Positions 2,038-35,001 of a DNA stretch of 64,000 nucleotides are shown here, one piece after another. This DNA is from Psammoneis japonica (lineage: Eukaryota): contig QPGO01000002.1 of NCBI GenBank assembly GCA_008632985.1, positions 682,001 through 746,000 of the forward strand, read 5' to 3'. A model generated the notes under the pieces. The model worked only from the letters and a program-made list of their open reading frames with translations. It made no database searches and was not told where the DNA came from. Both the position numbers and the translations under genes were made by a program. Numbering within the stretch: position 1 is the stretch's first letter; every line of letters starts with the position of its first letter.

Positions 2038-2202
2038 CTTGGTCGTGGTGGAGAGAGCAGTGAAAGTAGTTTCGAATCTTCGTGATGTGGAGAAAAAGTG
2101 AAGCGTTTGGCAATCGCCACTTGCTTGCGCTTGTGGGAAAGAGCCTGAATTGGCCGTGAGAAATGGCCTGTTGCATGTCACCACACGGTACGTACAGTAT
2201 TC

Positions 2203-3450
2203 AGTGGAGTGAACACAGAAGCGCTTGCTCAACACTTCTCGCTTCCAGTCTCTAGTCTCCCTAGATCAATATTGGCGACAGAGAAAGGAAAGGCTTCCGA
2301 AAACAACATTACTGCCATAACACAGTTGTCGTCCACGATGTACAAAATGTTCAGTACCAATCAGCTCGGTGAGAAAACGTTGCGCAGCTTGTTTGGTAAG
2401 GACATTGTGGTGGAGCATGTTCAAATATGGGGTGGTCCGCATGGAGGAGCAACACCAGACTATCAGGGCGAAGGGTTGTCGATGAATTATCTACTTTATG
2501 ATGCCGCGCAGGGTATGGATGGTCATCGGTCAGGTGCTCTATTCTATGCGAATGCCATCGAAAGCTCCTTTGCATGCGTGGAACTAAGTGCTATTGGAGC
2601 GAAATCGGTTGCCAAGCTCGCAGACAGGAAATTGAAGCTCGTTCGTCCGATGAAAACGGGGTTTCATTCAGATGAACTCTAGCTAGAGAGGTATACATAC
2701 ATTGCCACACTCAAACACTTTCGTTTTGAGGACCGATTCAATGCTGACCACTCTAGGTCAACTATCCATGGTATGACCAGTGCCTAGGATGAAGCTAATC
2801 GGCAACTACGAAGCCTGAGAGGGCCGGTCGATTGGGGCAGTTTGTGCAATGGCAAGGTTTCGTCTACAAGCATTCTTATAAATAATTCGGATCCACAGTG
2901 CTGGTCTAGTAGTTGCCCTTCGAGTTCTGGAATCATCGCTATGCAAAAACGCCGGTTCCGTCGGGCGACTTCCTAAATCATGCTTATCACAATGCCTTGC
3001 TATTCCGAAACTGGGGTGCGAGATTATTACAGCATGTGAACCACAAGAGTCAGTGGCACCGAAAGTGTGTCACTATTGAGGGTGTTTGTTAAAAATTGCT
3101 TCTGCGAAGTTTATCGTAGTTGCGTCGTCTGAACCAGGTCTGCGCTCTGAAATGCGGGGGGGGGGGTTACCGCAGCATCTAGACTCTGCGAAGGTCGCAC
3201 TAGTTTCAAGTCGTTGTCCCGTCGCCCGTGGAACCACAGCAACGTGTAATGTGCTTGGCTCGCTTATCTTGGATAAGCGGGATGCGGAGGAAAGATTTTT
3301 GGCTTGGGATGTATGGCACAGAGTGTTACTTATTTCCCTGACGTTGATCGCGTTCGTGCTCAAGACGCAACTGATACCATTCATCAGGCTCCAAGTCTTC
3401 GGGAAGCTTATCTTTCCCGGCAGTAAAGATGACGTCCTGTAGTCTGTCCC
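2203..3450. repeat. Dispersed repeat, copy A (normal TpA/CpG content), homologous to 20488-21773
   Basis: Colinear similarity over ~1.25 kb, from gtggagtgaacac to gtctgtccct. Confidence 0.9.
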
Positions 3451-3739
3451 TAGATTTGTTTGAATGCAGCCTATTACAATTCCTATGGAAATTGGAAAGC
3501 TCATCGCCCTAAATAATGCTTTCAACAGTTTTTCATCAAAACAACAGCTAGGCATACTTGTTGAATTGCTTGGTATACTATTACTCTCTGGTGTCTCCCA
3601 GTGGATCAAACGGTGCAGTGTACGGACAACAGTTCTTTGATTTCTTGCCGCTCTTCGATGTCTTGCTGCCTTTCGATTTCTTGCTGCTGAGGAACTCTTC
3701 GTTGATGTACTCTAACGCGTCAAGGGCATGTAAAAAGCC

Positions 3740-5603: not shown

Positions 5604-5606
<3 letters not shown>

Positions 5607-6025: not shown

Positions 6026-8537
6026 TGTCAAAAACAACAACATCATCTCTTCTCATCTCCCAAAATCGATTGTTGAGATCTCTCTTCAGCTCTTCAGTTC
6101 ACAGCCACAATTTCTCCACAGGGAACATTGACAACCACTTCTGCCATTGCGTTGCAACCTTGAGCCATTGCTCTTGACAAGACAAGCTGCTTGGTTGCAT
6201 CTGCTTGGCCCTTGGCTGGCCCTGCAACTGCCAGTGGTCTCCCCTCACCTTGAGTGCACCTGGCTGGTCCATCCATTGCTCCTCAGCATTGTGCACAGCA
6301 TTTGACAATTTCTTTTCCATTGCCACAATCAAAAGGGAGAGCAAGCCACCTGACCACTGGGAAGAGCTCTGTTTGGAGAATGCAATTCAGATGATGTTGC
6401 TGGCAACAAAGAGAACACATCTGCTGTTTTTCTTCAGAATGACGATTGACTTGCTCCCACCAAACTCAGGCAGAAATGGCAACATGAAGAGTGCAAGCAA
6501 CTCATTGGGAGAACACATCATGTCAGCAACAGCCTGCTCCACCCAAATCTTTGAAGCCAAAAGCTCCAGTTGTCAAACCACCCCTGTCCACAAGTCCCCA
6601 CCACCACATGCTGCTGTCTGTGCAGCCACTGGGCTGCCAACCCCTGTTGGTGCTGCTTCATGTTGTGCCCTCTTGTTGATGCTCATGCAGCTGCTGAGGC
6701 TCCAGCTGCTGGAGCAGAGAAATTGCCAATTGCCAGTCTGAAATCTGGGCTGCCACAATCACGCCAAAATGATGAAAACTCTCCAAGGTCCATGAATGAT
6801 CTTGCCATCCTTGGATCAGGCGGGCATGCTCTTGGACAAATGTGGCACCAAATGCATGCACACATGCACGCACACAGTGTGCTCTGGAGCAGAGCAAACA
6901 CAGCTGGTGGCCGCTGCTGGGAGATGGAAGTCTCTGGGGTGGAGAGCCATGGGAGCATCGACTGCTTGCAAGGGCTTTCTTCACTTTCTTGAAGTGATGG
7001 CTGGGGACAACACTCTGGAGGAAGGAAAACCATTCTGTGCCAGAGAGGAAGTGGGGTCACTCAACACATGATTTGGGGTTTGCAATGGCAAAGGTCACTT
7101 TTCATTGCTCACATCAAATTCTGCACCACTGTGGTCAAAAATGAAAATGTTTCACAGCTGCAATGTTGATTTCATTCATCTTTCACTTGCTGCAAGCACA
7201 GTCAAACCCTCCTTTTTGCAACCTTGTGAGCAACTCAAGCAACAGGATGAAGAAACCTGTTTTAAATCACCGGATGCCATGTGGGATGTGGTGGGGGTCT
7301 CCTGCATTTGACCCGAGTGTCCTTTGATGACTGCCTGGCCTCAATTGGTGTGCTGTGCAAATTGTTGCAGTGTGGAGAAAACATCTGCCCTGTCAAGGTC
7401 ATTTGCAAGATCATGAGCTTGTCAATGCACTCAACTGTTGCAGCTGCAACCAGGACAACTCTCAGTTGAATGGCAAGAGCAAGACATGTTTTTCTCATTG
7501 CTCTCTTTGCATTTCCCGTGCTGATCTTGAATCGGGTGTGCAATGCTGGTTGGTCTTGGTTCTTTTGCAACAGGCAAGAGCAAAGGGGGGGGGGGGCATT
7601 CAGCATCATTGGAGGCAACCACAAGACACTTGGATTGGCTGTGGCCTGGGCCAATGTGAATCACAAAGTCAAATGTGGCAGCAAGCATGTTCATCATGGG
7701 ACCCCACAAATGTGGAGGGACCCTCATGTGCTCATGTGGAGCCCTGCGCGTGAATTTTTGCATGTGGTGCTGAAACACACAGCCTGCACATGCAAAAACT
7801 GGCACAGTTTCCATGACAAAAAATTGAAAAATGCCTGGTTAGTTCTCAAGATGGCTCTGGTGCAAAATCTGTGTGAACAGTCACCACACATTTACGCAGA
7901 ACTCTGCACATTTCTGGGTTGCGGGTCCCTGAGGGACCCACTGTGAATGTGGTGCAGCACGTGCAAGAATGTGTGTCATCTTCCATGGTGGGTGGCTTGG
8001 ACCAGCTGGGCCTGCAGGTGGGTTGGGGGACATCTCCAGCCAGCTGCTGGCTGAAAAAAATCTGTCCATCAGCACATCAGGGGTGCAAAAACTTTGACAT
8101 TTTGGATTTTCCAATTTTGATCCTGGATCAAGGGCATGTTTTGCCATGATGGAAGCTCCAGTGCACTGCCAACAATGTGCAGCAGACATTGCTGGGGCAA
8201 GTGCAAGATGCCAAGAGTTGAGCTTGATCCTTGTGGCTGTCTTTTGTGTCTTTGCTGTCTGTCAGAACTGGAAGTGGCTTGAGGAAAGAACCTGCTTCTG
8301 TGCGCTGTTTGCAACCATGCCATCACACCAGCCATCAAATTTGGAGAGTGCCAGCAACAAAAAGTCAAACAAGGAAAGGACAAAACAAAACCAAACTTCC
8401 ATGTTTAAAGTGCTGCTACGCTTCCACCCCGCAACTCCGGCAACAAGCTAACCCACACCCCCAGCACACGACCAGTGCGGCAGGAACACATGACAATTGG
8501 CCCGGATCGGCATCACCCAAAGGTGACGCCATGCCAA

Positions 8538-11500
8538 AGTAGCTTGTGACAGTTCTTGTTCCACATGCAGCCAAACGCTTGGCCTTTTTAACACTCGACT
8601 TGAACACAGGTTTGACCATGGCTAGCCAATTTCGAATGTGATGGGTAGAATGAGTGAGGTGTTCGTCAACTGAGTCAAACAGTTGTGCCCTGTCCTTTGC
8701 AAGATGTTCATCTGATCTCGAACAAACAGCCTGAACCTCTGCCTTGGCATCTCTCCACTGGGACGACTTCCTGGCATCTGAATCGTGGCCGTGAACATCG
8801 TCATCATGGGAATCCCACAGCTCCCACTGTTGCTCCCAAACACAATTGCCAACAGCAGCTGCCTGATCTGAACGCTTCTCTTTGTCCAAAAGATCCTGAT
8901 GCACTCCACTTGATGAAAAGACAAGCGAGCTGAGCCACATTCCACTCGCAAGAGAAGTGTCCGCTGAAGACATGTCTCCATCCAACAGCATCCTGGGAAC
9001 GGAACAAAGCCACTGCACTCCCATGAAGACCATCTGAGTGCATCATTTCCTCTCGAAACCAAGACTCAATGGATGAAATGATCAAGTCACAAATGGATGG
9101 CGAAGTGTGAATGTCGTTGCACTTTTTCCGCAGACCTTGTAAAAACTTTCTGCGCCATTCTTCGTCATGAGGACATCACAGAATGTGATCACGGTCTTCC
9201 ATGGGGTGGTGGCAATGAACACAACAGTCGGACCGTGCCGGATCATACCTGTGTACGATCTTGTCAGTGGGGGAGCAAGTCTTGGACCAACTTGACTGTG
9301 CTCACCTTGCGTCTGATGTTTCGTGACATCAATTTGGAGCGCACTTCCCAATTGACAGACTCGCAAACCACGTCTGACCAACCACACTTGTCTTTCATGC
9401 AGCCAATGAGCGCAGGACTGGATGCCTCGAAGCGGAGTGCAGGCTTGTAATTTGAGCTGACAGTGGCTTGTTGGACGACCAAATTTGCCAAGCAATGAGG
9501 TGTTCTTGGTGCCACCAGTGCATCCCCTGAGTGGTGACCATGATGTCGACCCGCCAACATGTCAGCGCGCATGTTTAGCTTGGCTGGTGACGAAAGAGAT
9601 TCAAATGGCACGTTGTTGTCTTGATGTCCTTTTACCCACTGAACTTCGACTTGCGTTCCGGAAGACTCACCAACAGAAAAGCTCGAAATGTCGTGAGCAG
9701 AACAACACATTTCGTGCAGCAAATCCCATTCTGCTGATGACGTGCCATCTTCCGCAGTGGTTGCCATTGCAGGGGCAGCTGAAGGAGACAAATCCTGCAA
9801 TGTTTCCAGCTCGGAAACTGAATCTGCTTGGTTGTCTCGCACTGAGAAGACTTGAAAACCCAAGTCGGCACGGACACACAAGTGTTGTTCGTCTGGTTCG
9901 TAGCATGCCAGGTGCGTCATTTGCATGTCCAAGGAGGAAACAACCCACTGCCCCAAAGGACCTTTGAGAGTTGTTGCATTTTCCACACACAACAGGGAAC
10001 AAAACCTCTTCCACTGCTTCCATGCACGAGCAGACGGGTGCTGTTGTTCCACTGGGTTCAACCTCAACACTCTGCCAACAAGAGACCGTTTGCCTTCCAA
10101 AGCACATCGATTGACAGACCGGCCGTCCGGGAGAGCAACATCCGATGCGGTGAGAATGTTCAGATACAATCTGCAATGGTTGACCCACCCAATCTTGCAA
10201 TTTGTAAAGATGCCCGAATCCAAGACCACATCCATGATGTGTTGATCGTTGTCCCTCTGCAACAGCAGGACGCCAGCATTGTCAAAGTCGATGCAAGCAT
10301 GCACTCTGGCAAGAAAAGATCGCAAGGACATGAACCATTTTGACTCAGCATGGGGCAGCATTGAAGTCACGTCACGAAGGAAGCTAACGCCAGCACCCAA
10401 ATGAAACTGCACCCAAGAGACGGCAATGAGAGATGAAGCCTGTGGTTGTCCCGATCCGTGCCAGTGTTGTAAGAACTGCAACACTTGGGCAACACCTTGC
10501 TCCACATCTAACGAACGAAAGCCTCCTCCTCCCAGGGAGCATGGCCTGAACAAAACATCGCGCTTTGTGTTTCAATTATATCTGCATTTTGCAACAATGG
10601 CACACACGGCCTTTTGTTGAATTTCCAGAAGTTCCTTGGGATCAAAATGTGCATTTGGGAGAACGCAGGTCATTGAAGACAAGTGGCAAGCAAAGCAGTG
10701 GGTCCATGCCTCATGCTGGTCAAGAGGACATGAGCAGAGGAACATTGCAATGTCGTTGCTTTTCTTCTTGAGAGCTGAAAATTGCGTCTTTTGGCTGCCA
10801 ATTGGAGCTTTGAAGTTTCCCAAGGTTTTGTGTGATGAACATGCAGATGGCTGTTTGCTCCGTCGACTGGTGGCCCTGTTGGCGGATGCAATCTTGATGA
10901 TGAGTTCATTGTCATGAGGCCGGAGGTGTGGTTCGCCGTCATCTGAAAACATCCATTCGATGGCATGAAAAGAGCACCCAGGCAGTTCCAGTTCGTGGCC
11001 TGCGGCGTTTAAGAGATCACACCACAATTGGTTGTCCTCCTGCATTTTGAGCGTGAGTTCAAGCATGCAAGGCTGAAGCGATGCTCGAAAATCATTGACT
11101 TGTTTGGATGTGTCATCTGCGCATCCTTGGCCAAACATTCTCATTGCCATCGTTCTGTCAGGAGTTTCAAAGAAGGCGCCATGAGTGTTGCAATCAAAAA
11201 CATCAAAAAGACTGTTGCACATCTGGCTCCAATCAAACGAAGATCTGCCACTGCCTTGCCCCATCCCGAGAATTGGCAACTCTTCAGAATGGGGGTGTGA
11301 TGTCGGAGACAATCTGAGGACAGTTTTCAACCAACAACATGCTTCATGAAGTGCAGTGTTGGCAACTTGGGTGACCTTCTTAGGCATGCCATTACTTTGG
11401 TTCTGGACGGCAACCAGAGCGGGGATGTTCCTGTCGTGACACGACGTACAATCATCATCGCTGTTGATGGCTGACTTGCGCGACACTTGACTGGTCTCAA

Positions 11501-13870
11501 GCATCAGTTCTTCAGGACAAACGGGAGTCTGGGCATTCTGGAAGGGACAAGTGCCGTAAACACCGGGGTCACACAACCTTTGATGTTCCATGTTTTGAGC
11601 TGGTGCTCTCCACTTTACACCTGTGACAAGCTGGAAATCGGCTTCGTAGATGTGAACAACACGCAACCGGTGAATTTTGGTGTTGCCGGGCTCCTTGAAT
11701 GTCATGACGTTGACCATGTCCTTCCAACGGTCAAAAGAACAACCCCATTGTAAGGCATGATTCAGAAGATTGAGGTGAATTTGGATCAAGGTTCATTGAA
11801 TGTTGTCCAATGGAACACAATCGGAATCGTCTTCTTGGTCCAACGCAGGGGCGTCCGAACATTGGTGAGGCACACACATGGCTTTCCAGTGTCCCAGATG
11901 CAACCCAGAACACAGGGATGTAGAAGTTGACTCCTTCCAGCTTTTGATCTTGCCCTCTAATTCTACCTCGGTTAAATGTTCCGACACCGAAACAGGGGAT
12001 CGGCATTTCAAACAGGCAATGAGTTGAGCTGTGGCATCGTTGAGAGAAGAAGTGTTGCAATTGCTGTCCAGCATGAGTTCCGCCACAACAGCATTGCCTT
12101 TGAATCCAAGGTCCACAGACAAGGGAGGAACAGCAGGAGGAGCACCATGTGCCTGCCCAAAATGCTTCTGGCTCCGCACACGAAGAGCAGTTGCAACGTC
12201 TTCTGGAGTGTCGAGTGTCATCCAATCGTCGCATTCCTTGGGATGCACATTCGGGTTCCAAGGGACTTGAATGCTGTCAATGCCGGTGTCCCATTCAGCC
12301 TTGCACGATTTGATCTTCTTGAAAAGTCCAACCATTTCTTCTGCTTTTTGTGCATTGCGAAGAATTGAAGCTTGTTTTCGGGACTGTTTGGTCCCGTCCA
12401 AATCGAGAGCTGCAATTTTGGCTGACATTTCCCGCTCACGATGCACGACACTGTCCGCTGCAATCTTCTTGCAATCTGTTTGAGCTTCTCGCAGGGCTGC
12501 TTGGCATTCTTGCAGTGTCTTGGGAATGACAAAGGATCCTTTGAGTTCATCACAAATCCATTGAATCTGGGATGCGCAATTGATCTTGGCGCGCATCATG
12601 GAAACTGTGCGAGAGAAAATACAAACACGATGACGAAGGTCTGCCAACTCTACAGACCAGTCGGGTTCACGATGATGCCTGCAACATTTGGCCGCCGCTA
12701 AAGAAAACTGTAAAAGGTCGCGATCCAATCTCTCTGCCAAGTCGTGATTGGGTTCGCTGAGTGCCAGGAGCTGTGCAGATCTTTCCAATGCAGAGCAACT
12801 CTCCAACACAGGACCGATGGCTTTCAAATGCGCCATGACCTGAGGTTTAGATGATGCTTGGACATCTCAAAAACATGCTTTGGGAAGATCAACCGCAGGG
12901 TTTCCAAACAATGCCATTGTGTCAAAGTCAACGTAATGCGCCCGGTGGTCGGAAGCAATGCGACACCCAAAGGCTTCGCACCCTCCCAGTCTGACAGCAG
13001 ATGAAGCTCCCGGCAAGGCTAGAATGAAGTCGAGGCGTTTTGATCCGCGGGTGTGCGTGGAGAAGTCAGTGTTTCCAATGATGTTGAAGAAGACGTCTGA
13101 CAAATTAAACCATTGCGCCAAGCTCGCCAAAGAATCCGCATCAAATTCGAAGTCCATGTTAAAATCGCCAAACAAGATCACTTCTCTGTTGGATTTGGCT
13201 GTGAACTCTTGGAGAATCCGAGATGAATCCGTGCAAAAGGCTTTGCGTGGGTCCACTGCTTTGGCTCCATTCTGTCAGAGGAGACATTGTTGCTGAGCAA
13301 ACGTGGCAGTTTTCCCTGGTTGGCGTTGGTTTTTGGCGCAAACTCTGCAGCACGAAACGAACACAACTTGTCGTCCATTGCGGCCATCGAATGCTTGAAT
13401 GGACCATCGCCCGAGGGGATCAGAAAGTTGGGACCTGTGCCGCGCAGACACAGCATTGCACGAGAAGAGAGCTGTTCCGCCAGGTTTATGTTGCGTTGAG
13501 AAGGGGTGGAACTGGTGGAGAAAGTGCCTCGGCCACGCAGCAGAGAATTGGAAACCGTGGACCTGCATGCTGAAAGAATGTCAAATTGTGTCATGTCCAA
13601 ACACACTTCCGATGTGCCAACAATGTCGGCTTGGATTTCATTGGCCACCTGGCAGCATTCGTTGATGTTGCCACCACGCTTGTCAAACTTGCATCCATTG
13701 GCATTGAAGGCGTGTGGTCGTGTGTGGTGTAATGACTTGGGGCGAAGGCTGTCGCCGACAGGTTCATTGGTTTTCAGGCGTGAAAAATCCATGCATCGAT
13801 CAGCCGGCGGATGGCAACTTTGTCCATTTAAAAGGGATTGCCACGCAGACACGTTTTTTGCAGGAGAGGG
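8538..13870 (-). pseudogene. LINE ORF2 (endonuclease, reverse transcriptase, RNase H), disrupted
   Basis: Consecutive minus-strand ORF fragments 13178-14203, 12867-13256, 11793-12836, 10572-11789 and 9264-10553 carry the domains in the expected order. Confidence 0.88.
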
Positions 13871-14081
13871 GTTTCCACTCATGATTGGGCCATGCTTCTC
13901 CAAAGAGAAGACTGGGGCTTGTAGCGAGGAAGTAAATTGGAACCACAATGGAGCAAGAAAGGTTGGTGCTTGCCAGTGCATTGGAAAACCCATGCAAGGG
14001 ACAGCAAAGATGTGCGTTGATGAATGTTGGGAGGGCGCCCAATGGTTTGTGGAGACGGAGGTGGCAAGATCCATCTCCATG

Positions 14082-15801
14082 CTAAAAATCCGAGTCTTTC
14101 CCATCATTGCTTTGGTTGGGAGTCTGATTTTGGTTTTGTCGCTTTCTCGTGGGACCAGGGGAAGGGGCTGACCGGGATGCTTGGAGCAACTGGATGATCT
14201 CATTCATCTGATCTTGCACACCTGACATTTTCTCCGAATGTTGTGATTGCGTGTTTTGCATTTCATTGGCATGTTCATCACGTAGTTCACGAAGGGCCTT
14301 TTCATGACGGGATTGCATTTGGGTCATTGTTCACTGGACCTCAGCCAATTGAACGGATGCAATTGAAGAGCTCGACAATGATTGAGCAATCTGAGAATGA
14401 GACGCCTGCGGAGACGCAATGCCAGGACAGCCGGTGCAACCACAACTTGGAGTTTGAAATGATGGTGGATTCGTGAACATTTGAGGAGGGATGGGATGGG
14501 CAGCTGACTCACCACGACCCTTGAAGAGCGGAGCGGCCAGTGCCTCTGCCAGACGAAGGGTTGGGCGGATGGATGGTGCAAGGAGCATCAACATTGGTCA
14601 AGGGAGACACATCTGAAAAGGTGAGAGACTCCAGGCTGCGGATGCCAGCCAACATGATTGATTTGCTGGCATCTGAAACTTTGTCAAGAACTCCGGAAAC
14701 CTGAGGAAGATCTTCAAATGGGGGAGTTGGGTGAGCTTCTTTAGGGAGATTTGGAGTTTCATTCAGAACACACGTTGAAATCTCAGCTTGGGCCTTTTTG
14801 AATTGAGCGCGGTGGACCAGGATGTTGTGTCTGCCAGTGGACAATGCGGAAGGGGAGGGAAAAATGTCAATTGTGCCCTGGATTGCTTCAATGTGATTCT
14901 CCAAGCAGAACATCATGTCCGCAGTCATGTGCAACAACGGCACGACGAAGGCATTGTTGTTGCGTTGGGCTTGCATTTTGACTGCATTGTAAAAGGCGAG
15001 TGGAGACACGCAACGGGTTTTTGCCACAAGGATGTGAGTCGGAAGCTTGTCAGATGCACACAAAAGGGTTTTTGCTGTGGTGCGACAGTCCTCTTGTTCA
15101 ACTTCAACCAAAAAGGTCGCCGCACAAATTGGCACTGAGGTTCTGTTGTCATCTGCTCAAACGGAAGTGGGAGCTGAGCGAAACTTTGGCATCTTGGTTT
15201 TTAAATCTCCAAGATCTTTGACAAACAACTTCGTAGCAGCATCAACGGGAGTGTGTTTTGATGCAGTTGCAATAAAATGTGCTGGACTGGCCGTGTCAAT
15301 GACAGATTCATTCCAACAATGACGCTTCAAACCCATGTTGTTTGCCTCCAAAACATTTTGAATGTTGGGGTGAGAACGAATGTCGCGTGGGGGCACTTTC
15401 GTGAGGATGCGGTGACACAAACGATGAGTGACGGGATGGTTCTCGCCACTGCGAGTTGTCGAAATCTGGAAGTGGCACTCATGTTGGAGAGCAGAAACCC
15501 ATTCGGCGACATTGACATTTGCAATTCTGGCATTGTTGTTGTCCAACACCTGAACTTCGTCATGGAACGTAAACAGGATCTGACTGAGAACTTGGAGATG
15601 AGAAGTCACGAGAGCCATTGGTTTGCAAGCAGCCTCTGGACCGCAAATGTCAAAGCAAACGGCAATCTCTTCATGTTGTTGTTCTTTTGGTTTTGACAAC
15701 GGTTTGAGAGAAGCTTGATCAACAGCAATGTCGTCAGCAATGGTTGCATCTTCATTTGCAGAAGTGGTGTTGCTGCCGTCAGCGGCGGAAGACGATGCCA
15801 T
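14082..15801 (-). pseudogene. LINE ORF1, disrupted
   Basis: Fragments 15157-15801, 14509-15135 and coiled-coil 14082-14327 lie immediately upstream of ORF2 on the same strand. Confidence 0.65.
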
Positions 15802-18800
15802 GGTGATCGGTGTTTCTACGGCAAGCCTGGCATTGAAAACATGCAGGTAAATTCAATGCCAACAAATGCAGAAAAGCAAACAAACAAGGACAGGACAGAA
15901 GAGAGCAAGGGCTGTTGATGAAGATTGGCTTGAGGCACATGAGATTCCATGAAGTGTTGTTGAGCCTCATGAGGTTGTTCACACATTCCGGCTGTGGCCA
16001 GTGAATTTGAGAAAGATGGGTGCATCAGATCAAAGAGACTGTGTGGGAAATGGATTGTTGGCAAATGTGATGCACAAGATGTCATTTTCTGAGAATCACC
16101 AACTTGAACCGCAGAAGCTCCAGCACATGCTGTCTGCCAATGCTGAGTTCCTTCCCTTGGCAGCTGATGAACAAAGCCATGTCAACTCCAATGTTTGGCT
16201 CTGTGCAGCTGTGATGCCGCTGTCATGTGCTTTGTCAGAAGGCAATGAGGAAGAGGGGCACTCAGATGTGCAGACTCCAAATAACCTGCTTCAACATGTG
16301 GAAATGTTGGTTCATGGATGCTTGGGAAGGGTTTTTTTTTTTGCAATGAGCACTGGTTGTGTGCCACGCCAAAACATCAACCTGAAAGATGCTGGACCAG
16401 CCCCAGGTTTTTGTTGCAGCCATCTGCCAAAATCTGACAGTCTGTGCAGTGGATCCAAAAAAGGGTGTTGGGCATGCTGCAAACATTCTGTCATTTCAAG
16501 TTCAAACAAGCCAACAAACACAGCTTTGTGAGCTCTCATCAAGGATGAGACCAGTCAAGTCTTGCAGCACACTTTCACGTGATCTTTGTAGAAGGGCAGC
16601 AGAGGCAATGGCTCAGCATGTTGATCTTGGAACTCACAAGCCTCCCATTTGTTCTGGGGACAATGTCAACACAAAGGATGGTCAGGGCAGTGCTGCTGAA
16701 CAGACAGCAATGCCATTGCAGGCACCTTTGATTGGTGAACTGCCCCACAATCAGGGTCCTCCACTCAATTGAAAGTGCACAGATTGGAGCAAATGGGTGA
16801 AGCCAAGCACTGATGATGAAGCACCAGCAGCATTCTTGCCAAGCAAAAAAGACAAACATGGAATTGGGGAAGTGGCACTGTCTGACTTTGCTGCCATTCT
16901 GCACAATCTTGACATGATGCCGTGGGGGGTTGAGGAGTGCAACAAATTGTGCTCTCCTGCATGTTTGTTTGTCACCACCAAGAAGATCCCATGTGTCTTT
17001 GGTGGCAGGTTGGCAACAAGCAAGACATTCAATGGTTTTGTTCCAGTTGGCAGGATCATGAAGAGCAGATTGTTGATGGGACAGTCCAAATCAATGCAGT
17101 GTGGAACAAGAGCCACACACATCCTTGTCCAATTCAAACATGACATTTGGGTCACAGGGAACTGCATGGCATCGTGGATGCATTGAAAATTGTCAAGCCA
17201 ACAATCAGATGGCAGCACATGAGAGTGCACTCTTGCAAGGCCTTGACATGCCTGCAGTTGAAAGGCCAATGTCCGCCAATTCTGCACTCTTTTTGGTGGA
17301 CGGTGCAATGGCAGAAATGGTGGGCTGGATGTTGGACAAAGATGCATCAAATGCTGTCTGAAAGCACAGCAAGTTGGTTGTTGTTCCTGGTCCTTTCCAT
17401 TGGAAGAATGACACTTTTAAAAAAGCCAGTCATTCAAATGAAGATTGGGCTGCACACATTGGAGATCAGCTTGCTCAAAAGGATGGGGAGAGTGCCTTGG
17501 AAGAAAATTTGTCATTTCTCATTGACTTCTCTGACCCAACCATCCCTGAAAAAAAATGTGCGCTGAAGCTTCAATGGTGGCAATTCTGGCTGCAGTCTGC
17601 TGGAGCATGAAGGTGTCAGGAAGGCAGCAAGCATCACCAGCAGATGCTCATAACTGGATGATGGAGCAAGCCACAGAAGTGAAGCCCTCAAACAATGAAC
17701 CTCATTTGAGTGCATTTTGATTGTCTCATCATGAGGCACTTCAAGCATTCATTCAGAAATGATCTGTGGGATTGTGGGGTTGATGCTTGAGTGCAGCTTG
17801 ATTGAGCATGCCAGTGCAGGCCATGATGCGTGGAACTCTTTGCTCCAGGATGGCTGGAGATCTCTTGCAAGATGCTGCAGTGTGCTGGTCCCAGACGGAG
17901 AAGGCAGTTGTAAAGATCAGTTGTTTGTGTTAAAGAGTGAACCAGAGGAGTGTGTTGAATGTGACACCATGCAAGAGAAACATGTCTGGGTCATTTGTGA
18001 GAGAATCAGTGATGAATTGAAAAGGGGGCATCAACCCAAAATGATTGAGGAAGCAACCCAAGCCACAGCCTTGCAAGCAAACAAGAGGCATGCAAAGCAT
18101 GCAATCAAGTGCCTTGGTTGAGAAGAAGAGGAGCTGTTGGAAACAAAAAAACCTTTGTTGGGCTGGACACAGAACAAATGGGCAACAAAGTCTTGTGTGC
18201 AAACATTTTGATTGTTGACAAGGAAAAGTTTTTCTTGCCGGGTCCATCAGAAAATGAAAAAAAATGACAAGTCTCTCATTTTGGCAAGAGACAGAGAGCT
18301 GTTGGATGCAAGACAACTTGATGCACAAAAGATTGGAGCAGAGAGGTGGAAAAGGTGCATTTCTAAATTTCTTGTCAAGAGTCAGCATGAGGTCCTTCAA
18401 AAAAGAAAAGGACATTGGCCTGGAAAGGATTCCAGCTGCAAGCTAGAAAATGGCCAACAAAATTGAGCAACGCCGGATCAGACGAGTGTCTGCTGACATT
18501 GAAGAGTTGAAGAAGAGCAGGACCAAAGAAGAGATTCATGACAAGTTTTCCATTTTAGAGCCATGTCTGAGTTGTGGTAAAAAGCGGAGGGCTCAAGCAG
18601 TCATTGATTTGACACCTGCAAAACTGAACGGAACAACCAAGATGTTCTTGGTTGGTCATCTTGTTCAATTGAGACAGACACTTTTTTGCCATTGGCCAGA
18701 ACTTGTTCCAACTTTGGGCAACGGCATCAGGGACAAACAGGCAGGAGATTCAACCACATCATGAGAGAGGGGACAGGAAATGCTGTGTGACAAGTTTTGT

Positions 18801-20487
18801 GCACAGAGGGAGTGCCCAGTGCCCAGTGCATGTGGATCCATTCCATCTTGAAAGAAAAGATTTGTTGTGGTCGCAGCTGAGACAATCTGCAGCAATTGTT
18901 TGCATTGCACACATCAGGTGCAATCTGCTCCACTTGTTTTGAAGCCTTGCTCAACCTCAACAGAGTCACAGAGAGAGAGAGCAGCAAATGACAGGCTCAA
19001 GTTGCAGTTCTTTGGCTGAATCTTGACACAGTGTCAGCAGCATCTGGTGTGCTTGTGCAAGCTGAGCGTTGGATCACTCAGAGTTCAGAATCCAATTTGA
19101 TGATGCACGATGTGTGACAGGTGTTTTGGCTTGTCTCCTTTGAGTTCTTGACAGTTTCACACTTTCAAAGCTTCACTTTCCTCTCTGAGCAAGTCTCACT
19201 CTCATTGTCATCAAGCAACCATGGAGCAGTGCTGTTGTCCCCAGTCATGCATTTGATGCAGTCATTGTCAAAAGGAAGGTTCTCACAGTTGAGGCCAATG
19301 ACAATTCTCTTTGAATGAGGTGGGATGGCTTCATCTGGTGGAGCAACTCCATTTTTGCATGGTGCGCCAACACTTTGCTCCAAAACAAGGGACAACTTGC
19401 AGTTGACTGGAACATCTTGCCCCAGTTCCACAGCATCAACCACAGATCTCTTGGCAGCCACCACTGCTCTGTGGACAGGTTGTGACATTGCATGGTGTGG
19501 CTTCACCTGCAAATCTTCACAAGCATGTTGGTGCTTTCCTGAATGCTTTTTCCACTTGCTCTGTTCCTGGCATGCTCATCCAGTGCTTCCTGAGTGTCAG
19601 AACAAAGCACGCAAGGTCCAGGAGAGCACTCACTGGAAAAGGTGGGACGTTGATGTGTGCATTTCAATCTGATCAATTTCCTTTCTTTTGTCATCTGGAG
19701 ACAAGCCACAACACCAATTTGCTGCAATGAGCTTCTCTTGAAGTGTCCCTGCATCAATGATGAGGGACACTGGCAAGCAATGTCCATTTGCAGCAGTTTT
19801 TGTTCCTCATGGGAGTGCTTCTCTGAGATTTTTGTGCAGCTCAGTCTGGAGAGCTTTGGATCTGTCCATGTGTCATTGTTGTTGTCCTTCATGTTGTTTG
19901 GCAGCATGGCATTGTTGACAAGAGCCTCGACTCCATGAATCTTTGCTGCTGGAATTGGAGCTGTGGATCTGGCTGGTGATTGTGGAAGCATTTTCCCCAC
20001 CTTGCACACATTGCCATTGTTGGCACCAGCTGCCCCGATTGGCGGCAAGCTTCCTTCATCATCACTTGGGTCAGGTGTGGCAGTGTCAACAGAAGGCATT
20101 GGGCACATTGCAGCACACAAAATGGAAGCCCCTGGGAGCCATCTTTTGCCATCATCGTTGGCATTAAATTTTGCAAATTGTGGTTTGTGTTGCGGAATTT
20201 CGCCCCTGCTGCTCTGACGGACAGAATTTTTCAAGCCAGCAGCTGGCTGCAGAAGGATCTTCAATCTGTTGGTTGATTGTGATGTGTCATCATTCTGGCA
20301 GCACCCATCCAACAAGCTTGGACGTGGGTGGGGCTGTGCTTCAGCCAATGCCTTTGAACAGAATGATTGATGCAGATTTGGAAGATCATGGTCCAACAAA
20401 AAAGAGGGACACAATGTTTCCTCCCAGATCCCCTTCCATCATTTTTGACTTGCCCACACACCAGCAGCATTGTCACCATGGTGGTCC

Positions 20488-21773
20488 GTGGAGTCAACAT
20501 GGAGGCACTTGCCCAACACTTCTCACTTTCAGTTGCCAGTCTCCCCAGATCAATGTTGGCAACAGAAAAAGGAAAGGCTGCCGAAAACAACACTGCTGCC
20601 ACAACACAGTTGTTGTCCATGGTGTGCAAAATGTTCAGCGCCAATCAGCCCAACAAGAAAACATTGCACAACTTTTTTGGCAAGGACATTGTGGCAGAGC
20701 AAGTGCAAATGTGGGGCGGTCTGCATGAGGAGCAACACCACACCATCAGGGCACAAAGGGTTGCTGATGAATCACCCACTTTATGATGCCGCGCAGGGTC
20801 TGGATGGTCATCTGTCAGGCACTCTGTTCCACATGCAAATGCTGTTGAAAGCTCTTTTGCATGCATGCATGGAGCCAAGCGCTGTTGGAGCCAAATTGGT
20901 TGCCAAACTCACAGCCAGGAAATTGGAGCTCATTTGTCCAATGAAAACGGGGTTCCACTCAGATGAACTCTGGCTGGAGAGGCACACATGCATTGCCACA
21001 CTCAAAGACTTTTGTTTTTAAGGCCAACTCAATGATGACCACTGGGCCAAGTCTCCATGGCATGACCATTGCCTGGGATGAAGCCAGTTGGCAACTGCAA
21101 AGCCTGAGAGGGCTGGTTGATTGGGGCAGTTTGTGCAATGGCAAGGTTTTGCACACAAGCATTCTTGTAAATTGTTTGGATCCACAGTGCTGGTCCAGCA
21201 GTTGCCCTTCAAGTTTGGGAGTCTTCACCATGCAAAAACACCGGTTCCATTGGGTGACTTCCTGAATCATGCTCATCACAGTGCCTTGCCATTCCAAAAC
21301 TGGGGTGCAAGATCTTTGAAGCATGTGAACCACAAGAGTCAGCAGCACCAAAAGCATGCAAGAGTCAGCAGCACCAAAAGCATGTCATTGTTGAGGGTCT
21401 TTGTCAAAAATTGCTTCGGCAAAGTTCGCTGCAGTTGCGTTGTGTGAACCAGGTCTGTGCTCTGAAGTGTGGGGGGAATTTACCACAAGACACGCCATCT
21501 AGAATCTGCAAAGGTCACACCAGTTTCAAGTCATTGTCTTGTGGCCTGTGGAACCACAGCAACAGGCAATGTGTTTGGCTTGCTTGTTTTGGACAAGCGG
21601 GATGTGGAGGAAAGAGTTTTTGGCCTGGGATGTGTGGGGCACAGAGTTTCACTTGTTTCCCTGACATTGATTGCGTCTGCACTCAAGACGCAACTGACAC
21701 CATTCATCAGGCTCAAAGTCTTTAGGAAGCTTGTCTTTCCTGGCAACAAAGATGACATCCTGCAGTCTGTCCC
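20488..21773. repeat. Dispersed repeat, copy B (hypermutated homologue of 2203-3450)
   Basis: Colinear with copy A, with almost all TA and most CG changed to TG/CA. Has an extra ~27-bp internal duplication near 21334-21385. Confidence 0.9.
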
Positions 21774-23351
21774 TGGCCAGGAAAATGGAGCTTGTTTGTC
21801 TGATGAGTGCACAGTTTGATTTGAACAAACTCTAGAGAGGCACCCACACATTGCCACAGATGCTGTGCTGTTAAATGTCACTCAAAGACTTCCATTTGGC
21901 AACCACTTTCACTTCTTTTTTGTTGAGAAATGGACATTTGGGTCTTGTGCTTTTTGTGCGAACGATCATTTTCAAACCGGGTGTTGCATGCAAACAATTC
22001 ACCTCCCTTGTTTCCACACCTGAAAAGGACAATCACCTGATGCAAGCCCAGATTGTTGCCACATTGTTTTGAAAATCAATGTTTGACAATTTCAATCTTT
22101 GGCTGCAATGCCTGGAATGGTCATTTGCAGCAGGAGCCTGAGAGCCTTGTTGGAGCCCCCTTCTTGTGTGCCTGAAGCAACCAAGGAACTCATTCAATGC
22201 CAATGACATGCCCTTCATTTTCCTGCCATCAAGCTTCTTTCTGCTGAAGACAAGAAAGTTTCTTTCTTGTTGTCAACCAGGAAAGAACCACACAAACCTG
22301 ACAGTTGTCTCTCTGCAGTCAAAGTTTTGTTGACAACCGGGCTCTCAACTGGAGTTCTCTTGTCAATGAAATCCATCTCACAGGGGTGCAAAAGTTTGCA
22401 ACACATCATGTCTCTCTCCCTCTGGGGTCATGCCAAACAGACCCACCCCTGCTTTTTTTCTTGCCTCCAGACAGCAGGCTCAACTTGTGAAAACAGAAAG
22501 CTGGCCTCATCCAGCAAAACTGACAATCCTCATCAGCTCCAAATCGTCCAAAAAAGCACCTTCTTTCCACTCAATTTCATCAAAAAAGCTCACAATGGTG
22601 CCCCACTGGCTGGCCTCCTTTTTGTCAAAGTCCTCATTGAGGCTCGTTGGTGCCACAGAGAGTGTGGCCATGTGGCAAAGCAAGCTTGAGAAGTGGGTCT
22701 GCATGCCTTGATTCTTCATCCCCAGCTTGCTTGACATCATGAGCATCTGAGCACGCTCAAGCTGCAAATAAAATGTTCTTGGACAGCTCATCTTGAAAAC
22801 GCATGTGTGCTCATGCCTGGTCATGCTCCACTTTTTCTGCTTGAGGTTGCTGGCATGGACAACAAGAATGGTGTGGGTTGCAGGAGGTGGATGTGCAAGA
22901 GGCTTTCGCTGTGTTCCCTCCCTCGCCTTCTTAAAAATGCTGCCATTGCAACCTGGCTGCAGGGTGTGAAGTGGACAAGAGGGATCCTGGCAGGTTGGGA
23001 CAACATTTGAAGAGTCAGTTCAAGTGTCACAAAGGCCTTGTAGAGATGATGGTTCATTGTGCTGGAAGGTGGCCTCCAGAGCCTCCAGCTGCACCCTCAC
23101 CACGGGACCTGCAACAGTGGGACAACAAGTTGACGCAGTTGGCACAGCAAGCGCTGGCTTCTGCAAGGTCTTTGCTGAAAGTGCCAAGTGACAAAGATGT
23201 CACCAAGACAATGCTCATGGATTCCAAAAACATGAGGTTGACTCGCACCACCTTTGATCTTCCAGCTCCAATTCCTGAGAACCAACCATTTGACCTGCAG
23301 GATGTGCAGAATGAAAGTGGCAACAAGATGCGCAGAACTCAATGCGGCACA

Positions 23352-23511
23352 TTGGTTGAGTGAAAACGTCTCATCTGAGCTGCTTGGTTGAGTGGCATTT
23401 TCTCAGCTCAGCCACTTGGTTGAGCAGCATCTTCTCAGCTGAGCAGCTTGGTTGAGCAATGTCTTCTCAGCTGAGCAGCTCGGTTGAGAGGCATTTTCTC
23501 AGCTGAGCCCC
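23352..23511. repeat. Minisatellite, 5 x 32 bp (ttggttgagNNgcattttctcagctgagcagc)
   Basis: Five adjacent units, each containing the palindrome CTCAGCTGAG or a 1-nt variant. Confidence 0.9.
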
Positions 23512-24454
23512 GTGAGTGCAGGGCCGTGGAGTTTCAGGCAGCTCTAATTTCAGTGCATTGACACATTTGTCATTCACAGCCAACCCCACAACACACAACC
23601 TAGAGTTTTACAAGATGCAGCCACTGCCAACTGGTGCTCCTTGGCAATTTGGCACTTGAGAAGAATGACGACACAAATCCCCGACAAAGCAAACCCTCTC
23701 CAGGTGCATTGTGGCCACGAATGCCGGGGGCCCACAACTTGTCATGCTTGATTGTGCTTTGAAGGTGGCCCCACCATGCCCCAAAACCCATGTTTTGTCC
23801 TTCAGGAAAGTGCTTGTCTAAAACATTGAAACACTTGGCACAGAGACGTTCACGATTGGCCTCCGTTTCCTCAGAAAGAAAACTTCGGACGTGGTCGGGC
23901 AGACAGTTTTTTCCATGCATGTCAGCTCTGACCTTGCCAGGGACCTTTGGGCACCACGGACCTTTGGGCCAGTGCCAAACACCAACTTGAAGGCCAAAAC
24001 AGCAGCCAGATTCTTGACAAAACTTTGGTGAGCAGACTTGGGGCTGCAGCGCGACTTGCCTTCCCCAACAGCAGATGGAACCGTCAGATCCTTAATTTCC
24101 TGGTGGCAAGCAATGAGGTGCTGCAACCGCTTCCGTTCACCCAGAGGCATGGGAATGACACCAGGTTCCACAGCAGCAGCATGAGCAGATGCAGCCGGGG
24201 ATGGTGCAGTCTTGCGCCTCTTGGAACTGCCCTTGGCAGCGGAAGCAGCAGTGGCCTGGCGCTTGTGGCTGGGTCTGGTGGCACGCGCACCAGCTTCGCT
24301 GCCAACAGCTGCTGAAGGACCAGCACCAGCACCACGTCTCCCAGCATTCGCAATCTGGGAAAACCTCTGCCTTGATGCCAAATGAGCAGACGTGGTGGTG
24401 GGAGCGAAGATGGGTCTGAAAATGCAGGAAGAAAAGATCAGGTGAGTGACGTCC

Positions 24455-24640
24455 TTTAGCTGAGAAAAAATTCATCAAAAAGCTCAGCTGAGCACTCAGC
24501 TGAGCCAATGAGGGATCATTGAGCTCAGCTGAGTGGGCAGGAAAAAACGCTCAGCTGGAGAACAGGACTCAGCTGAGTGACAACCAACCCCAAAAAAAAC
24601 AGCAGTGTGTCGCGCACGTGCAGCAGCGCACAGCTGAGAA
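24455..24640. repeat. Cluster of CTCAGCTGAG palindromes
   Basis: About 7 full or partial (CT)CAGCTGAG motifs in under 200 bp; same motif as in 23352-23511. Confidence 0.8.
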
Positions 24641-25161
24641 GCAAAAAGACAAAACAGCCAACCTCCTGTTCAGAGAGGAAGGAAGCCACGGTTCATGGTA
24701 AAAACTCACCCACATTGCCTTTGTTGGTTCTTTGTCGAGTTGCCGGCGGCATGACGTCGTCGGCAGTCGTTGTCGGTAGTCCGATGCGGTGTTGCGTTCG
24801 GTCGGATGCGTCTTGGAGAAGGAGGAGCGAGCGAGCGAGCGGTCGTTGAACTTTGGGGTTCGCTCCGGTGTTCGCGCGCGTCAGAATTCGAGTGACGCAC
24901 TCGGGCGACGTCACGCGCGCCGGAGCTCGCGGTCGGCGTGGAACGCACGGGTGTTTTTTCAGTACTGCTGACGTGTAGTACCGCGCACGTGGGATCGCAC
25001 GGGGGGTCAGCCCGGGGTCCGGTCAGTCCTGGGTCAGCGCGGTCAGCGCGGGGGAGTACTTTCGGGGATGTGGATGTCAAACGACACACAGTAACGCACC
25101 CGCGGCAGCGTCATTCGGCAGTCGTGCGCTCCTCTTCTGCAATAGAGCCTTCAGATTGGAA

Positions 25162-26697: not shown

Positions 26698-27019
26698 AAT
26701 CTTCATGACAATACTGAAAGAGGTGACAATGCGCCTGGGGATGGAAGCTGTGAATAAGTCAAGGTATACTTATTGGACTTTGCTTTGTATGCTCTGCAAA
26801 AAAGAGAATAAGGAACCCCCGCCTAGTTGTGTCAACCATCATGCGGGTCTAGCTAGTAGACTATCTTCGTTACCAGGTTGAGAACGGCTACTGTAGGTTC
26901 CGTCGCTACTACGTAGTATGTCAAGCTGAGGGAATGCGTACACGTACGTAAAGCGCAAAATTACGACATCAACGAAAAGTTTCTCTGCCCTCTCTCCTGT
27001 CCCCGCTAACTAGCCTCCC

Positions 27020-34920: not shown

Positions 34921-35001
34921 TCTCTAACCGTCCAAAGTCGTCGGTTTTGCGGCCGAAACTTTCGGTTTTGGGCATGCTTGCTTTTCTGCCAGAGCGATCC
35001 G

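Follow-up and report, generated by a model that had tools for sequence, protein, structure and literature searches.

Tyrosine loss in a dead diatom LINE whose TpA steps were rewritten several times faster than its CpG sites

A dead but full-length non-LTR retrotransposon (LINE), with ORF1 followed by an APE-RT ORF2, occupies the minus strand at 8386..15880 of the 64,000-nucleotide stretch of Psammoneis japonica DNA that we analyzed (herein referred to as the window), and within it TA sites have been lost about five times (at least twice) faster than CG sites. We consider it roughly 75% probable that this LINE lies in older, silenced repeats and that the DNA is subject to two transition processes, one at TpA and one at CpG, the former about fivefold faster. 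Under this explanation, a 7.5-kb minus-strand element would have inserted into older silenced repeat DNA of the diatom nuclear genome, where one process would convert TpA to TpG or CpA (that is, A:T to G:C at the self-complementary TA step) and the other would convert CpG to TpG or CpA, so that both would converge on TG and CA. At a per-site speed about five times that of the CpG process, the TpA process would have left the LINE without approximately 80% of its TA at a time when about a third of its CG was gone; the older flanks would have lost about 95% of TA and 85% of CG.

The element was identified by homology to intact relatives, which match 8515-13801 by tblastn and cover residues 8-1933 of the closest of them, P0002 (45% identity over the reverse transcriptase [RT], E = 1e-100); these relatives run to 1900-2000 amino acids, and the 30 used for alignment span 1124-2018. 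The endonuclease precedes an xxDD RT in one ORF and ORF1 lies upstream, the latter assigned through homology: read through with X at its stop, the ORF1-like frame has a tblastn match ahead of ORF2 in 24 of the 80 related loci (best in L002, E = 1.7e-36). The family thus shares with APE-type LINEs an ORF1 and ORF2, an Exo_endo_phos endonuclease, an RT with xVDD and an excess of 3'-end copies; unlike typical members, however, its clade is very divergent. The first-pass annotation had suggested the Repbase clade Ambal as a candidate placement, a name that a literature search returned only within classification lists of 3 papers. ORF2 matches Exo_endo_phos weakly (E = 2.9e-4, under the curated cut-off), and the relatives reach E 1e-6 to 1e-11 for Exo_endo_phos and 6e-5 to 9e-8 for RVT_1 and also carry zf-RVT. 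A Pfam search of the ORF1-like frame gave no family, the RT piece matched no Pfam family at E <= 0.01, and a profile of 12 relatives matched no solved structure at E <= 0.01. ORF2 shifts frame near 13502-13505, and its main frame holds three internal TGA stops (12867-12869, 11793-11795 and 10572-10574), two of which we read as CGA>TGA because the relatives have Arg there (25/26 and 29/30). The 3' boundary of the family lies near 8404, where sequencing run X1 has 11 loose contig ends, and summed contig depth in that run is 5992 over 8386-8635 versus 183-800 elsewhere, a pile-up expected of 5'-truncated LINE copies. No poly(A) tail was found at the LINE; in a comparison of its two ends for a target-site duplication, positions 8300-8385 align with 15803-15900 at score 53 (highest score among 200 shuffles, 42), each stretch being A-rich and of low complexity. 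The protein-atlas clusters nearest to the RT belong to Bacillariophyta. Separately, a PFK ORF in the window has its best named matches exclusively in diatoms (58-70% identity).

The LINE contains 57 TA (observed/expected [o/e] 0.12) and 302 CG (o/e 0.66), with TG at 1.56 and CA at 1.53, whereas 6026-8380 contains 3 TA (o/e 0.02) and 18 CG (o/e 0.125) and 15900-23300 contains 22 TA (o/e 0.043) and 63 CG (o/e 0.152). These counts agree with the first-pass annotation, which had described a LINE stripped of TA yet rich in CG between flanks depleted in both; positions 9300-9500, for instance, contain 9 CG and 1 TA. Among 80 related elements (the best 80 metagenome matches, 30-65% identical to P0002), TA o/e is 0.38-0.89 (median 0.70) and CG o/e 0.71-1.13 (median 0.97), and none of 922 one-kb windows from these loci, chosen as best, intact matches, shows the signature. 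The affected DNA forms two hypermutated blocks (about 6026-24500 and 27001-35000; table 1) with sharp edges and normal adjoining genes, and composition changes abruptly where the blocks begin and end and at the two LINE boundaries (500-base bins). CG o/e in the blocks is 0.00-0.66 outside the LINE and 0.51-0.95 within it; the window's genic parts have TA o/e of about 0.4-0.75 and CG o/e of about 0.8-1.2. GC stays at 45-51%. The blocks contain the LINE, DNA without a Pfam match and one host-gene fragment, and a Pfam search of 67 long ORFs from them found no family in any.

Table 1. Features of the window discussed in the text (window positions).
Feature	Position	Strand	Basis or detail
Unmutated paralog, 3' half of prenylcysteine-lyase-like gene + downstream DNA	2201..3451	+	Pfam PF07156, E = 1.3e-11, on 2149-2682
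Older hypermutated flank, repeat or non-coding DNA	6026..8385		TA o/e 0.02, CG o/e 0.125
Non-LTR retrotransposon (LINE), full-length, dead	8386..15880	-	tblastn coverage, ORF1 homology, composition
ORF2 C-terminal pieces, shifted frames	8515..9271	-	tblastn pieces 8825-9271 and 8515-8862
Main ORF2 frame, 1337 codons: C-terminal part of APE, then RT and a downstream domain	9264..13274	-	Translation P0001
TGC (Cys) in G-C-A-D-D, aromatic position ahead of catalytic DD of RT	11121..11123	-	F in 29/30 relatives, Y in 1/30
CAC (His) in place of invariant Tyr, C-H-D-R for C-Y-D-R	11436..11438	-	Y in 30/30 relatives (CYDR/CYDQ)
CAC (His), T-H-T-R-G of endonuclease	13053..13055	-	Y in 19/26 relatives
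APE endonuclease N-terminal part, frame differs from remaining ORF2	13502..13801	-	tblastn pieces of P0002, P0004, P0008, P0025
ORF1-like frame, 448 codons, one in-frame TGA	14509..15852	-	tblastn of related loci
Older hypermutated flank	15881..24500		500-base bins: TA o/e 0.00-0.14, CG o/e 0.04-0.44
Hypermutated copy of host-gene segment	20485..21774	+	80.8% identity to 2201-3451, 1295 columns
Block margin, TA-depleted (o/e 0.22) with CG intact (o/e 1.25)	24501..25000		500-base bins
Second hypermutated block	27001..35000		TA o/e 0.00-0.15, CG o/e 0.00-0.66
Block margin, likewise TA-poor	34501..35500		TA o/e 0.05-0.19, CG o/e 0.66-0.87

The direction of change can be read from the host-gene-derived segment, which is mutated within the block while its genic copy is spared. 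Taking the genic copy as the ancestral-state reference, its 58 TA have become CA at 28 sites and TG at 20, with 4 kept, and its 68 CG have become CA at 29 and TG at 25, with 9 kept; at no site does a TA of the mutated copy stand opposite TG or CA of the normal one. Transition fractions per base are 0.38-0.53 in TA and 0.40-0.45 in CG, compared with 0.05-0.08 outside these steps. That TA is ancestral, as first proposed from the LINE motifs, is borne out by this pair (TA>CA/TG at 48 of 58 sites, none backwards) and by the tyrosines of the relatives.

The first-pass annotation had read the CADD, CHDR and THTRG motifs as products of single TAC>TGC or TAC>CAC changes. The codons are indeed TGC, CAC and CAC, and the latter two motifs are securely Tyr to His; the first is not securely Tyr to Cys, because F stands there in nearly all relatives (P0002 alone has Y), so that Cys could derive from Y by a transition at TA or from F by a transversion. 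The codon that follows it, 11118-11120, is GCA where 28/30 relatives have Val. As to whether relatives naturally bear Cys or His, the CYDR position never does, and among the 26 relatives covering the TY.RG position the residues are Y 19, F 3, H 2, C 1 and W 1. Across the alignment, the LINE retains 5 of 23 conserved tyrosines (9 are now C and 6 H) versus 304 of 415 residues when Y and I are set aside (Fisher p = 9e-7), and C or H is the outcome of 15/18 Tyr replacements versus 10/127 others (p = 2e-11); with 15/23 conserved tyrosines now C or H, the claim that Tyr codons have been stripped stands. The 106 single-step replacements include 34 TA>TG/CA, 16 CG>TG/CA and 4 A>G/T>C outside TA, read against a consensus of relatives that is an imperfect ancestor, since 45 of all 145 conserved-column replacements are transversions and 39 require two or more steps. 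In three unrelated public protein predictions from the same LINE clade (32-38% identical), Tyr has likewise become Cys or His at 7/9, 6/11 and 6/7 conserved-Tyr columns; control proteins retain Tyr at 11/13 and 9/11.

The ratio of TA to CG decay exponents in the LINE is 4.6 (o/e relative to the 80-relative baseline; 2.1 to 27 with extreme baselines), a value tied to the composition of relatives whose RT identity does not exceed 45%. Codons give a ratio of about 5, with Tyr TA retained at 5/20 and Arg CGN at 16/21. The proposal that TpA change outpaces 5-methylcytosine (5mC) deamination therefore holds as faster TA loss within the LINE, with 5mC as the presumed cause of CG loss. In the old paralog the ratio is only about 1.3, versus about 4.6 in the LINE, a fall compatible with a TA floor and also with episodic activity. 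A further proposal, that the TA/CG ratio could date insertions, fails for older DNA: TA saturates early and sits at its floor whatever the CG, which makes the ratio a poor clock. The LINE could, moreover, owe its higher CG to lower methylation than in the flanks and not to a shorter exposure.

An unlikely but serious alternative is that TA was lost in an episodic, RIP-like burst soon after insertion or element activation while CG decayed gradually, in which case "faster" would describe timing rather than rate. All 500-base bins lying wholly within a block have TA o/e of 0.00-0.24 regardless of CG (0.00-0.95), the block margins are depleted of TA and not of CG, and the exponent ratio varies, all as a burst would predict; hypermutation in the chlorarachniophyte Bigelowiella natans likewise occurred in just 11/15 lines, with up to 45 mutations in a single line (bioRxiv 10.64898/2026.01.13.699255). 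However, the LINE retains its 57 TA, including 5/23 conserved Tyr, where the older flanks have almost none, indicating that TA loss continued over time, and the events do not cluster by strand (32 runs in the pair vs. 25.0 expected).

In mutation-accumulation lines of B. natans, A>G and T>C account for 230/231 mutations in the two integrated-virus regions, every one of these 230 at a TpA; the rate is about 6e-7 per site and generation, or about 1000 times background (in some lines only), and coding sequences depleted of TpA carry an excess of RT, endonuclease-RT and DDE domains (Mettrop et al., bioRxiv 10.64898/2026.01.13.699255, 2026). The diatom case shares with B. natans a nearly pure TpA>TpG/CpA change (48/58 TA in the pair; 34 TA-context vs. 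4 non-TA changes in the LINE), a gain of CA and TG, and a sharply bounded distribution over foreign or mobile DNA, here two blocks. The hosts differ (a stramenopile vs. a rhizarian), as do the targets, which are a LINE, repeats without a Pfam match and a host-gene fragment here versus integrated viral and other foreign DNA there. The diatom blocks are saturated (TA o/e 0.00-0.15, about 26 kb) compared with a Rho of 0.45 reported for the NCLDV region of B. natans, and heavy CpG decay accompanies the signature, whereas the accessible preprint text has 0 mentions of "CpG." The TpA rate was measured de novo in B. natans; the diatom case is read from sequence comparison. The words "tyrosine," "diatom" and "retrotransposon" are likewise absent from that accessible text, and a literature search found no diatom report of a TpA signature.

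How the two processes run (their direction, sequence context, even distribution over the strands, confinement to regions and relative extent) is observed directly; their causes can be assigned only provisionally. By analogy with the proposal for B. natans, the TpA process would be enzymatic deamination of T-preceded adenine in DNA. It is improbable that the change instead begins at thymine, for example at a 5-hydroxymethyluracil (5hmU)-like T in silenced DNA that is miscopied or misrepaired to C. Because TA reads alike on both strands, A>G after T leaves the same sequence as T>C before A, and thymine hydroxylation with a TpA preference has been described in dinoflagellates; on the other hand, tRNA- and RNA-adenosine deaminases, TadA-type enzymes among them, are known to favor a 5' U/T, and 5hmU paired with A is not known to be strongly mutagenic.

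Deamination might also have struck the LINE transcript before reverse transcription, so that the element arrived already mutated by ADAR-like A-to-I editing; the element is a retrotransposon, and ADARs prefer 5' U and target repeat-derived dsRNA, as the preprint notes (bioRxiv 10.64898/2026.01.13.699255). This is very unlikely and largely refuted, because the changes are not limited to a transcribed strand or sequence. The LINE sense strand carries both A>G (21 TA>TG) and T>C (13 TA>CA), the paralog pair splits 21 versus 28 between strands, and the signature saturates flanks where 0/67 long ORFs have a Pfam family as well as the 1.3-kb segment copied from the 3' half of a host gene and the DNA downstream of it; the block margins and sharp regional boundaries implicate the locus rather than a transcript. 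Equal effects on both strands, together with the lack of clustering, imply a DNA-level, region-targeted process. At some sites where this copy reads CA or TG, moreover, nearly all other copies of the LINE retain TA: 10359 (other-letter depth 452.7 of 487.5, 9 contigs), 15389 (7 contigs) and 15753 (4 contigs), the entire depth in other copies showing TA at the latter two.

These copies come from run X1, which is the only run with the locus and probably the sample behind the window assembly, and hence not independent support. A sequencing or assembly artefact, in which modified repeat bases are systematically miscalled, is nevertheless highly improbable: run X1 contigs, built from 31-letter words and reaching 315 kb, agree with the locus letter for letter over 1375 and 693 bases (depth 30-35), implying accurate reads; copies differ in whether the same ancestral site now reads CA or TG, as expected of mutation; and the Tyr>Cys/His loss recurs in the three unrelated protein predictions. 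Across 1045 run X1 contigs from other copies there are 1741 transition places versus 621 transversion places, and 31 of the 40 best-supported copy differences fall in the TA/CG versus TG/CA classes. That selection on codons or RNA stability made the family TA-poor by nature, with Cys and His as functional variants, is hardly credible: H or C does occur at the TY.RG position in three relatives, but 0/80 relatives fall under TA o/e 0.38, the invariant CYDR Tyr is gone, ORF2 has three internal stops and several frameshifts, and non-coding flanks bear the same signature.

Fungal RIP (repeat-induced point mutation) changes C:G to T:A, mainly at CpA, so that new TpA steps and stop codons arise and GC falls, and it mutates both copies of a duplication. 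The diatom blocks share with ascomycete RIP a context-specific transition hypermutation, inactivated repeats and a dinucleotide signature in blocks; unlike in RIP, TA is destroyed, A:T becomes G:C, TAA and TAG vanish and GC is kept. The absence of any reversal in the pair argues against RIP itself, which raises TpA. The genic copy retains 58 TA, 68 CG and its Pfam domain, although selection on it could mask mutation of both copies. Diatom transposable elements are CG-methylated, and the CpG process probably reflects 5mC deamination, with which it shares CG>TG/CA change restricted to repeat blocks (54/68 CG in the pair) beside genes at a CG o/e of about 1. Unlike plain 5mC decay, it is the slower of two processes, and the two come apart at the block margins, where TA is lost and CG is not. 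Both may be aimed at silenced chromatin as a genome defense.

The TpA process would be unable to create stop codons and would disable genes through missense change, foremost Tyr>Cys/His but also Ile>Val/Thr/Met and Leu>Ser; by removing TAA and TAG, it would leave long spurious ORFs, and premature stops would arise from the CpG process through CGA>TGA. The LINE described here is a dead retrotransposon whose TA steps, nearly all rewritten to TG or CA, were lost several times faster than its CG steps and whose conserved tyrosines became mostly cysteine and histidine.

The transposable element at the centre of the hypermutated DNA is a single, dead non-LTR retrotransposon (hereafter the LINE; see table), and intact metagenome relatives of 1900–2000 amino acids match window positions 13801–8515 in five pieces that lie in differing frames. 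Exo_endo_phos, RVT_1 and zf-RVT domains are present in these relatives, and for the window copy Pfam gives a weak endonuclease match only. The clade is divergent. When a profile built from 12 relatives was searched against PDB sequences, no solved structure matched. The protein-atlas clusters nearest to the LINE consist of diatom proteins. In the sole public sequencing run that matches the locus (run X1), 1045 contigs fall on the LINE at a likeness of at least 80%, and summed depth reaches 5992 over 8386–8635 versus 183–800 elsewhere on the element (30–35 for exact-match contigs), as expected of a LINE family that has many copies, among them 5′-truncated ones. The sequence beside the 3′ end (8300–8385) weakly resembles that over the 5′ end (15803–15900) with a score of 53, versus a maximum of 42 among shuffles (n = 200); both stretches are A-rich, and the likeness could represent a decayed long target-site duplication or merely low-complexity sequence.

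Features of the window, in window positions (o/e, observed/expected)
Feature	Position	Strand	Remarks
LINE	8386–15880	−	ORF1 then APE-RT ORF2
ORF1-like frame	15852–14509	−	24 of 80 related loci have homologous DNA upstream of ORF2
Main ORF2 frame	13274–9264	−	1337 codons, open except for three TGA stops
Genic parts	1–6000, 24600–27000, 35500–64000		TA o/e ~0.4–0.75, CG o/e ~0.8–1.2
Hypermutated blocks	~6026–24500, 27001–35000		TA o/e 0.00–0.24, CG o/e 0.00–0.95, TG and CA raised to 1.3–2.1
Paralog, normal copy	2201–3451		3′ half of a prenylcysteine-lyase-like gene and downstream sequence
Paralog, block copy	20485–21774		80.8% identical to the normal copy
psbA plastid fragment	5733–6030	−	Photo_RC, E = 3.9e-28
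TIR and U-box ORF	24979–26697	+	E = 6e-10 and 3.5e-11
Bin with TA excess	55001–56000		TA o/e 1.31 (86 TA); TG and CA lowered to 0.84 and 0.92
RCC1-repeat ORF, stop codon	55569–55571	−	3′ end of ORF and downstream DNA overlap the TA-excess bin
Start of second block	27001–28000		GC skew −0.34, AT skew −0.29
(CT)n microsatellite and two short tandem duplications	5568–5605; 22–365; 45265–45600		otherwise normal DNA; the duplications at 81–88% identity

Alignment of the LINE to its relatives, with Tyr-to-Cys and Tyr-to-His changes counted, establishes that the stripping of Tyr codons proposed in the first-pass annotation is general. Across 458 conserved columns (agreement among relatives of at least 60%), Tyr is kept in 5 of 23 (9 changed to Cys, 6 to His and 3 to other residues; Fisher p = 9e-7 versus the remaining residues) and Ile in 4 of 20 (6 to Val, 2 to Thr and 2 to Met; p = 2e-6), versus 304 of 415 for all other residues. 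The ORF2 frame as a whole contains 0.5% Tyr and 4.3% Cys, compared with 2.4–4.4% and 1.0–2.3% in 33 homologs. At the codon level, 145 replacements include 21 TA>TG and 13 TA>CA changes, as well as 12 CG>CA and 4 CG>TG; transitions out of context are few (4 A>G/T>C outside TA and 7 G>A/C>T outside CG), and the rest are 45 transversions and 39 changes of two or more steps. These last two classes show that relatives of no more than 45% identity yield a consensus that only approximates the ancestor, and they leave the TA result unaffected.

The three motif codons that the same annotation had singled out do read as it stated. Tyr is ancestral in C-Y-D-R (30/30 relatives; His in the window) and in T-Y-x-R-G (19/26, with Phe in 3, His in 2, Cys in 1 and Trp in 1; again His in the window). 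In the third motif, CADD, the Cys is real but its proposed origin from Tyr is not secure: 29 of 30 relatives carry Phe before the catalytic DD and only the closest one carries Tyr, such that the change may have been Y>C or F>C. The following codon is GCA, where 28/30 relatives have Val, and would fit GTA>GCA, a further TA>CA change. The C-Y-D-R Tyr and the residue before the catalytic DD belong to what we take to be RT motifs A and C, at the dNTP pocket; loss of an aromatic residue there should cripple the enzyme.

That TA is the ancestral state is also fixed at the level of DNA, independently of any protein argument, by comparing the window with itself. A 1.3-kb sequence, with no likeness extending past that length, occurs once in normal genic DNA and once in a hypermutated block. 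The 58 TA of the normal copy appear in the block copy as CA (28) or TG (20), with 4 kept, and its 68 CG appear as CA (29) or TG (25), with 9 kept; conversely, the block copy has 6 TA, and at none of them does the normal copy read TG or CA. The per-base transition fraction is 0.38–0.53 in TA, 0.40–0.45 in CG and 0.05–0.08 elsewhere. The pair shows that host-derived sequence was mutated once inside the block, its genic twin being spared.

The long, intron-poor ORFs of the genic parts encode common eukaryotic proteins (subtilase, PFK, kinases, RCC1, CrcB and others), and the top named matches of the PFK ORF are all from diatoms, at 58–70% identity; accordingly, the host belongs to the diatoms or is very closely related to them. 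Relaxed blastn of the flanks against the LINE, and of one block against the other, returned a sole match of 56 bases between the two flanks. The second block opens with strong strand asymmetry. Between the two blocks, the TIR and U-box ORF stands alone, an immune-type domain pair in a diatom. The psbA fragment, plastid sequence in nuclear DNA, abuts the start of the first block and is unmutated (Tyr intact, 26 TA in its bin); either it was inserted recently from plastid DNA or the process does not reach this region. A TA excess occurs in a sole 1-kb bin of the window, at the RCC1-repeat ORF.

The proposal that TA loss runs ahead of CG loss is borne out by several measures. Relative to a baseline of 80 related elements (TA o/e 0.70, range 0.38–0.89; CG o/e 0.97, range 0.71–1.13), the LINE has values of 0.12 and 0.66, giving decay exponents of 1.76 for TA and 0.39 for CG and a ratio of 4.6, or 2.1 under the least favourable baselines. 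An independent codon count yields a ratio of ~5 (Tyr TA kept at 5/20 sites; Arg CGN kept at 16/21, with 5 changed to CAN or TGN). Among 500-base bins wholly within the blocks, TA o/e is always at most 0.24 whereas CG spans 0.00–0.95, and none combines low CG with high TA; two block margins (24501–25000, 0.22 vs 1.25; and 34501–35500) are depleted in TA but not in CG. The flanks, which are older than the LINE insertion because they are its target DNA, have fallen to 0.02–0.04 for TA and 0.13–0.15 for CG. The related suggestion that the TA/CG ratio could date insertions fails for all but very young ones: TA has reached its floor when only a third of the CG is gone, and in the old paralog the exponent ratio is down to ~1.3. 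For older insertions, CG alone is the better clock.

The TA change never makes a stop codon (TAG becomes TGG or CAG, TAA becomes TGA or CAA), and the six frames of the LINE contain 331 TGA, 45 TAA and 26 TAG. Two of the three internal ORF2 stops fall at Arg positions of the relatives (25/26 and 29/30) and are CGA>TGA changes via the CpG route. Inactivation therefore proceeds through missense changes in the TA process and through nonsense changes in the CpG process. Erasure of TAA and TAG leaves 68 stop-free frames of at least 110 codons in the blocks, on both strands, in which gene predictors would call phantom genes. Such DNA, filled with false ORFs and unseen by domain searches (Pfam families in 0 of 67 long ORFs scanned from the flanks and second block), biases both gene and repeat annotation.

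TpA-directed hypermutation has so far been documented only in one rhizarian alga, Bigelowiella natans, in one 2026 preprint, which reports that A>G and T>C changes, each falling on TpA, made up 230/231 mutations in the two integrated-virus regions of mutation-accumulation lines, at ~6e-7 per site per generation versus 3.5e-10 elsewhere, with 11/15 lines affected; an ADAT2-like DNA adenine deaminase was proposed (Mettrop et al. 2026, bioRxiv 10.64898/2026.01.13.699255). Borrowing from this precedent, we infer that in the window the adenine of 5′-TA would be deaminated in DNA to hypoxanthine and read as G. CpG loss would reflect 5mC deamination. The TpA change may alternatively proceed via thymine modification, as TA is self-complementary and sequence alone cannot separate a thymine from an adenine origin.

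A sequencing or assembly artefact is an unlikely source of the pattern. The locus is backed by exact contigs at depth 30–35, although run X1 is probably the source sample of the assembly and hence not independent support. One ancestral site can read CA in some copies and TG in others (among the best 40 of 2362 differing places, and in the paralog pair). Additionally, three public metagenome predictions show the same kind of Tyr loss: P0137, P0152 and P0177, LINE-clade fragments 32–38% identical to the window RT, contain <1% Tyr with raised Cys and His and have conserved Tyr changed to Cys or His at 7/9, 6/11 and 6/7 columns, versus two control proteins that keep it at 11/13 and 9/11. By these sequences, other elements or hosts seem to be subject to the TpA process too; the hypermutation signature was found in 0 of 922 one-kb windows of 80 related metagenome loci, a count of little weight since the loci had been picked for the quality of their match and are mostly intact. 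Transcript or single-cDNA-strand editing of the LINE, and long processive single-strand bursts, are argued against by strand balance (21 TA>TG vs 13 TA>CA in the LINE; 21 vs 28 in the pair) and by the lack of same-strand clustering in the pair, where a strand-run test counts 32 runs versus 25.0 expected at TA sites and 29 versus 27.8 at CG sites.

Context specificity, direction, regional targeting and strand symmetry are shown by the sequence, and DNA adenine deamination at 5′-TA is the cause that we propose for the TpA change. This is the B. natans signature on another supergroup branch; in the window it has reached saturation, is linked to a LINE and has been compared with CpG decay. The words diatom, CpG, retrotransposon and tyrosine are absent from the preprint's main text, and a full-text literature search covering non-subscription journals turned up no diatom case of TpA hypermutation. 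To the preprint's main text, the window adds a within-element comparison of speed with CpG decay (~5 to 1), a protein-level outcome (loss of Tyr and Ile, no nonsense codons) and evidence of targeting by region rather than by kind of sequence. We tentatively hypothesize, with a probability of roughly 0.3, that a dedicated DNA editing defence, directed at chromatin and functionally analogous to RIP, exists in diatoms; that it deaminates TpA adenine on both strands of DNA that has just been silenced, preceding cytosine methylation decay and independent of it; and that it is common to or convergent with the chlorarachniophyte system and hence may be widespread in the SAR supergroup. If true, its signature of missense changes alone and erased stops would systematically conceal old transposons and produce phantom ORFs in annotations of algal genomes. 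That a diatom LINE and the DNA around it carry the signature in saturated form points to a genome defence that is either old or recurrent in SAR lineages, among which are major marine primary producers.
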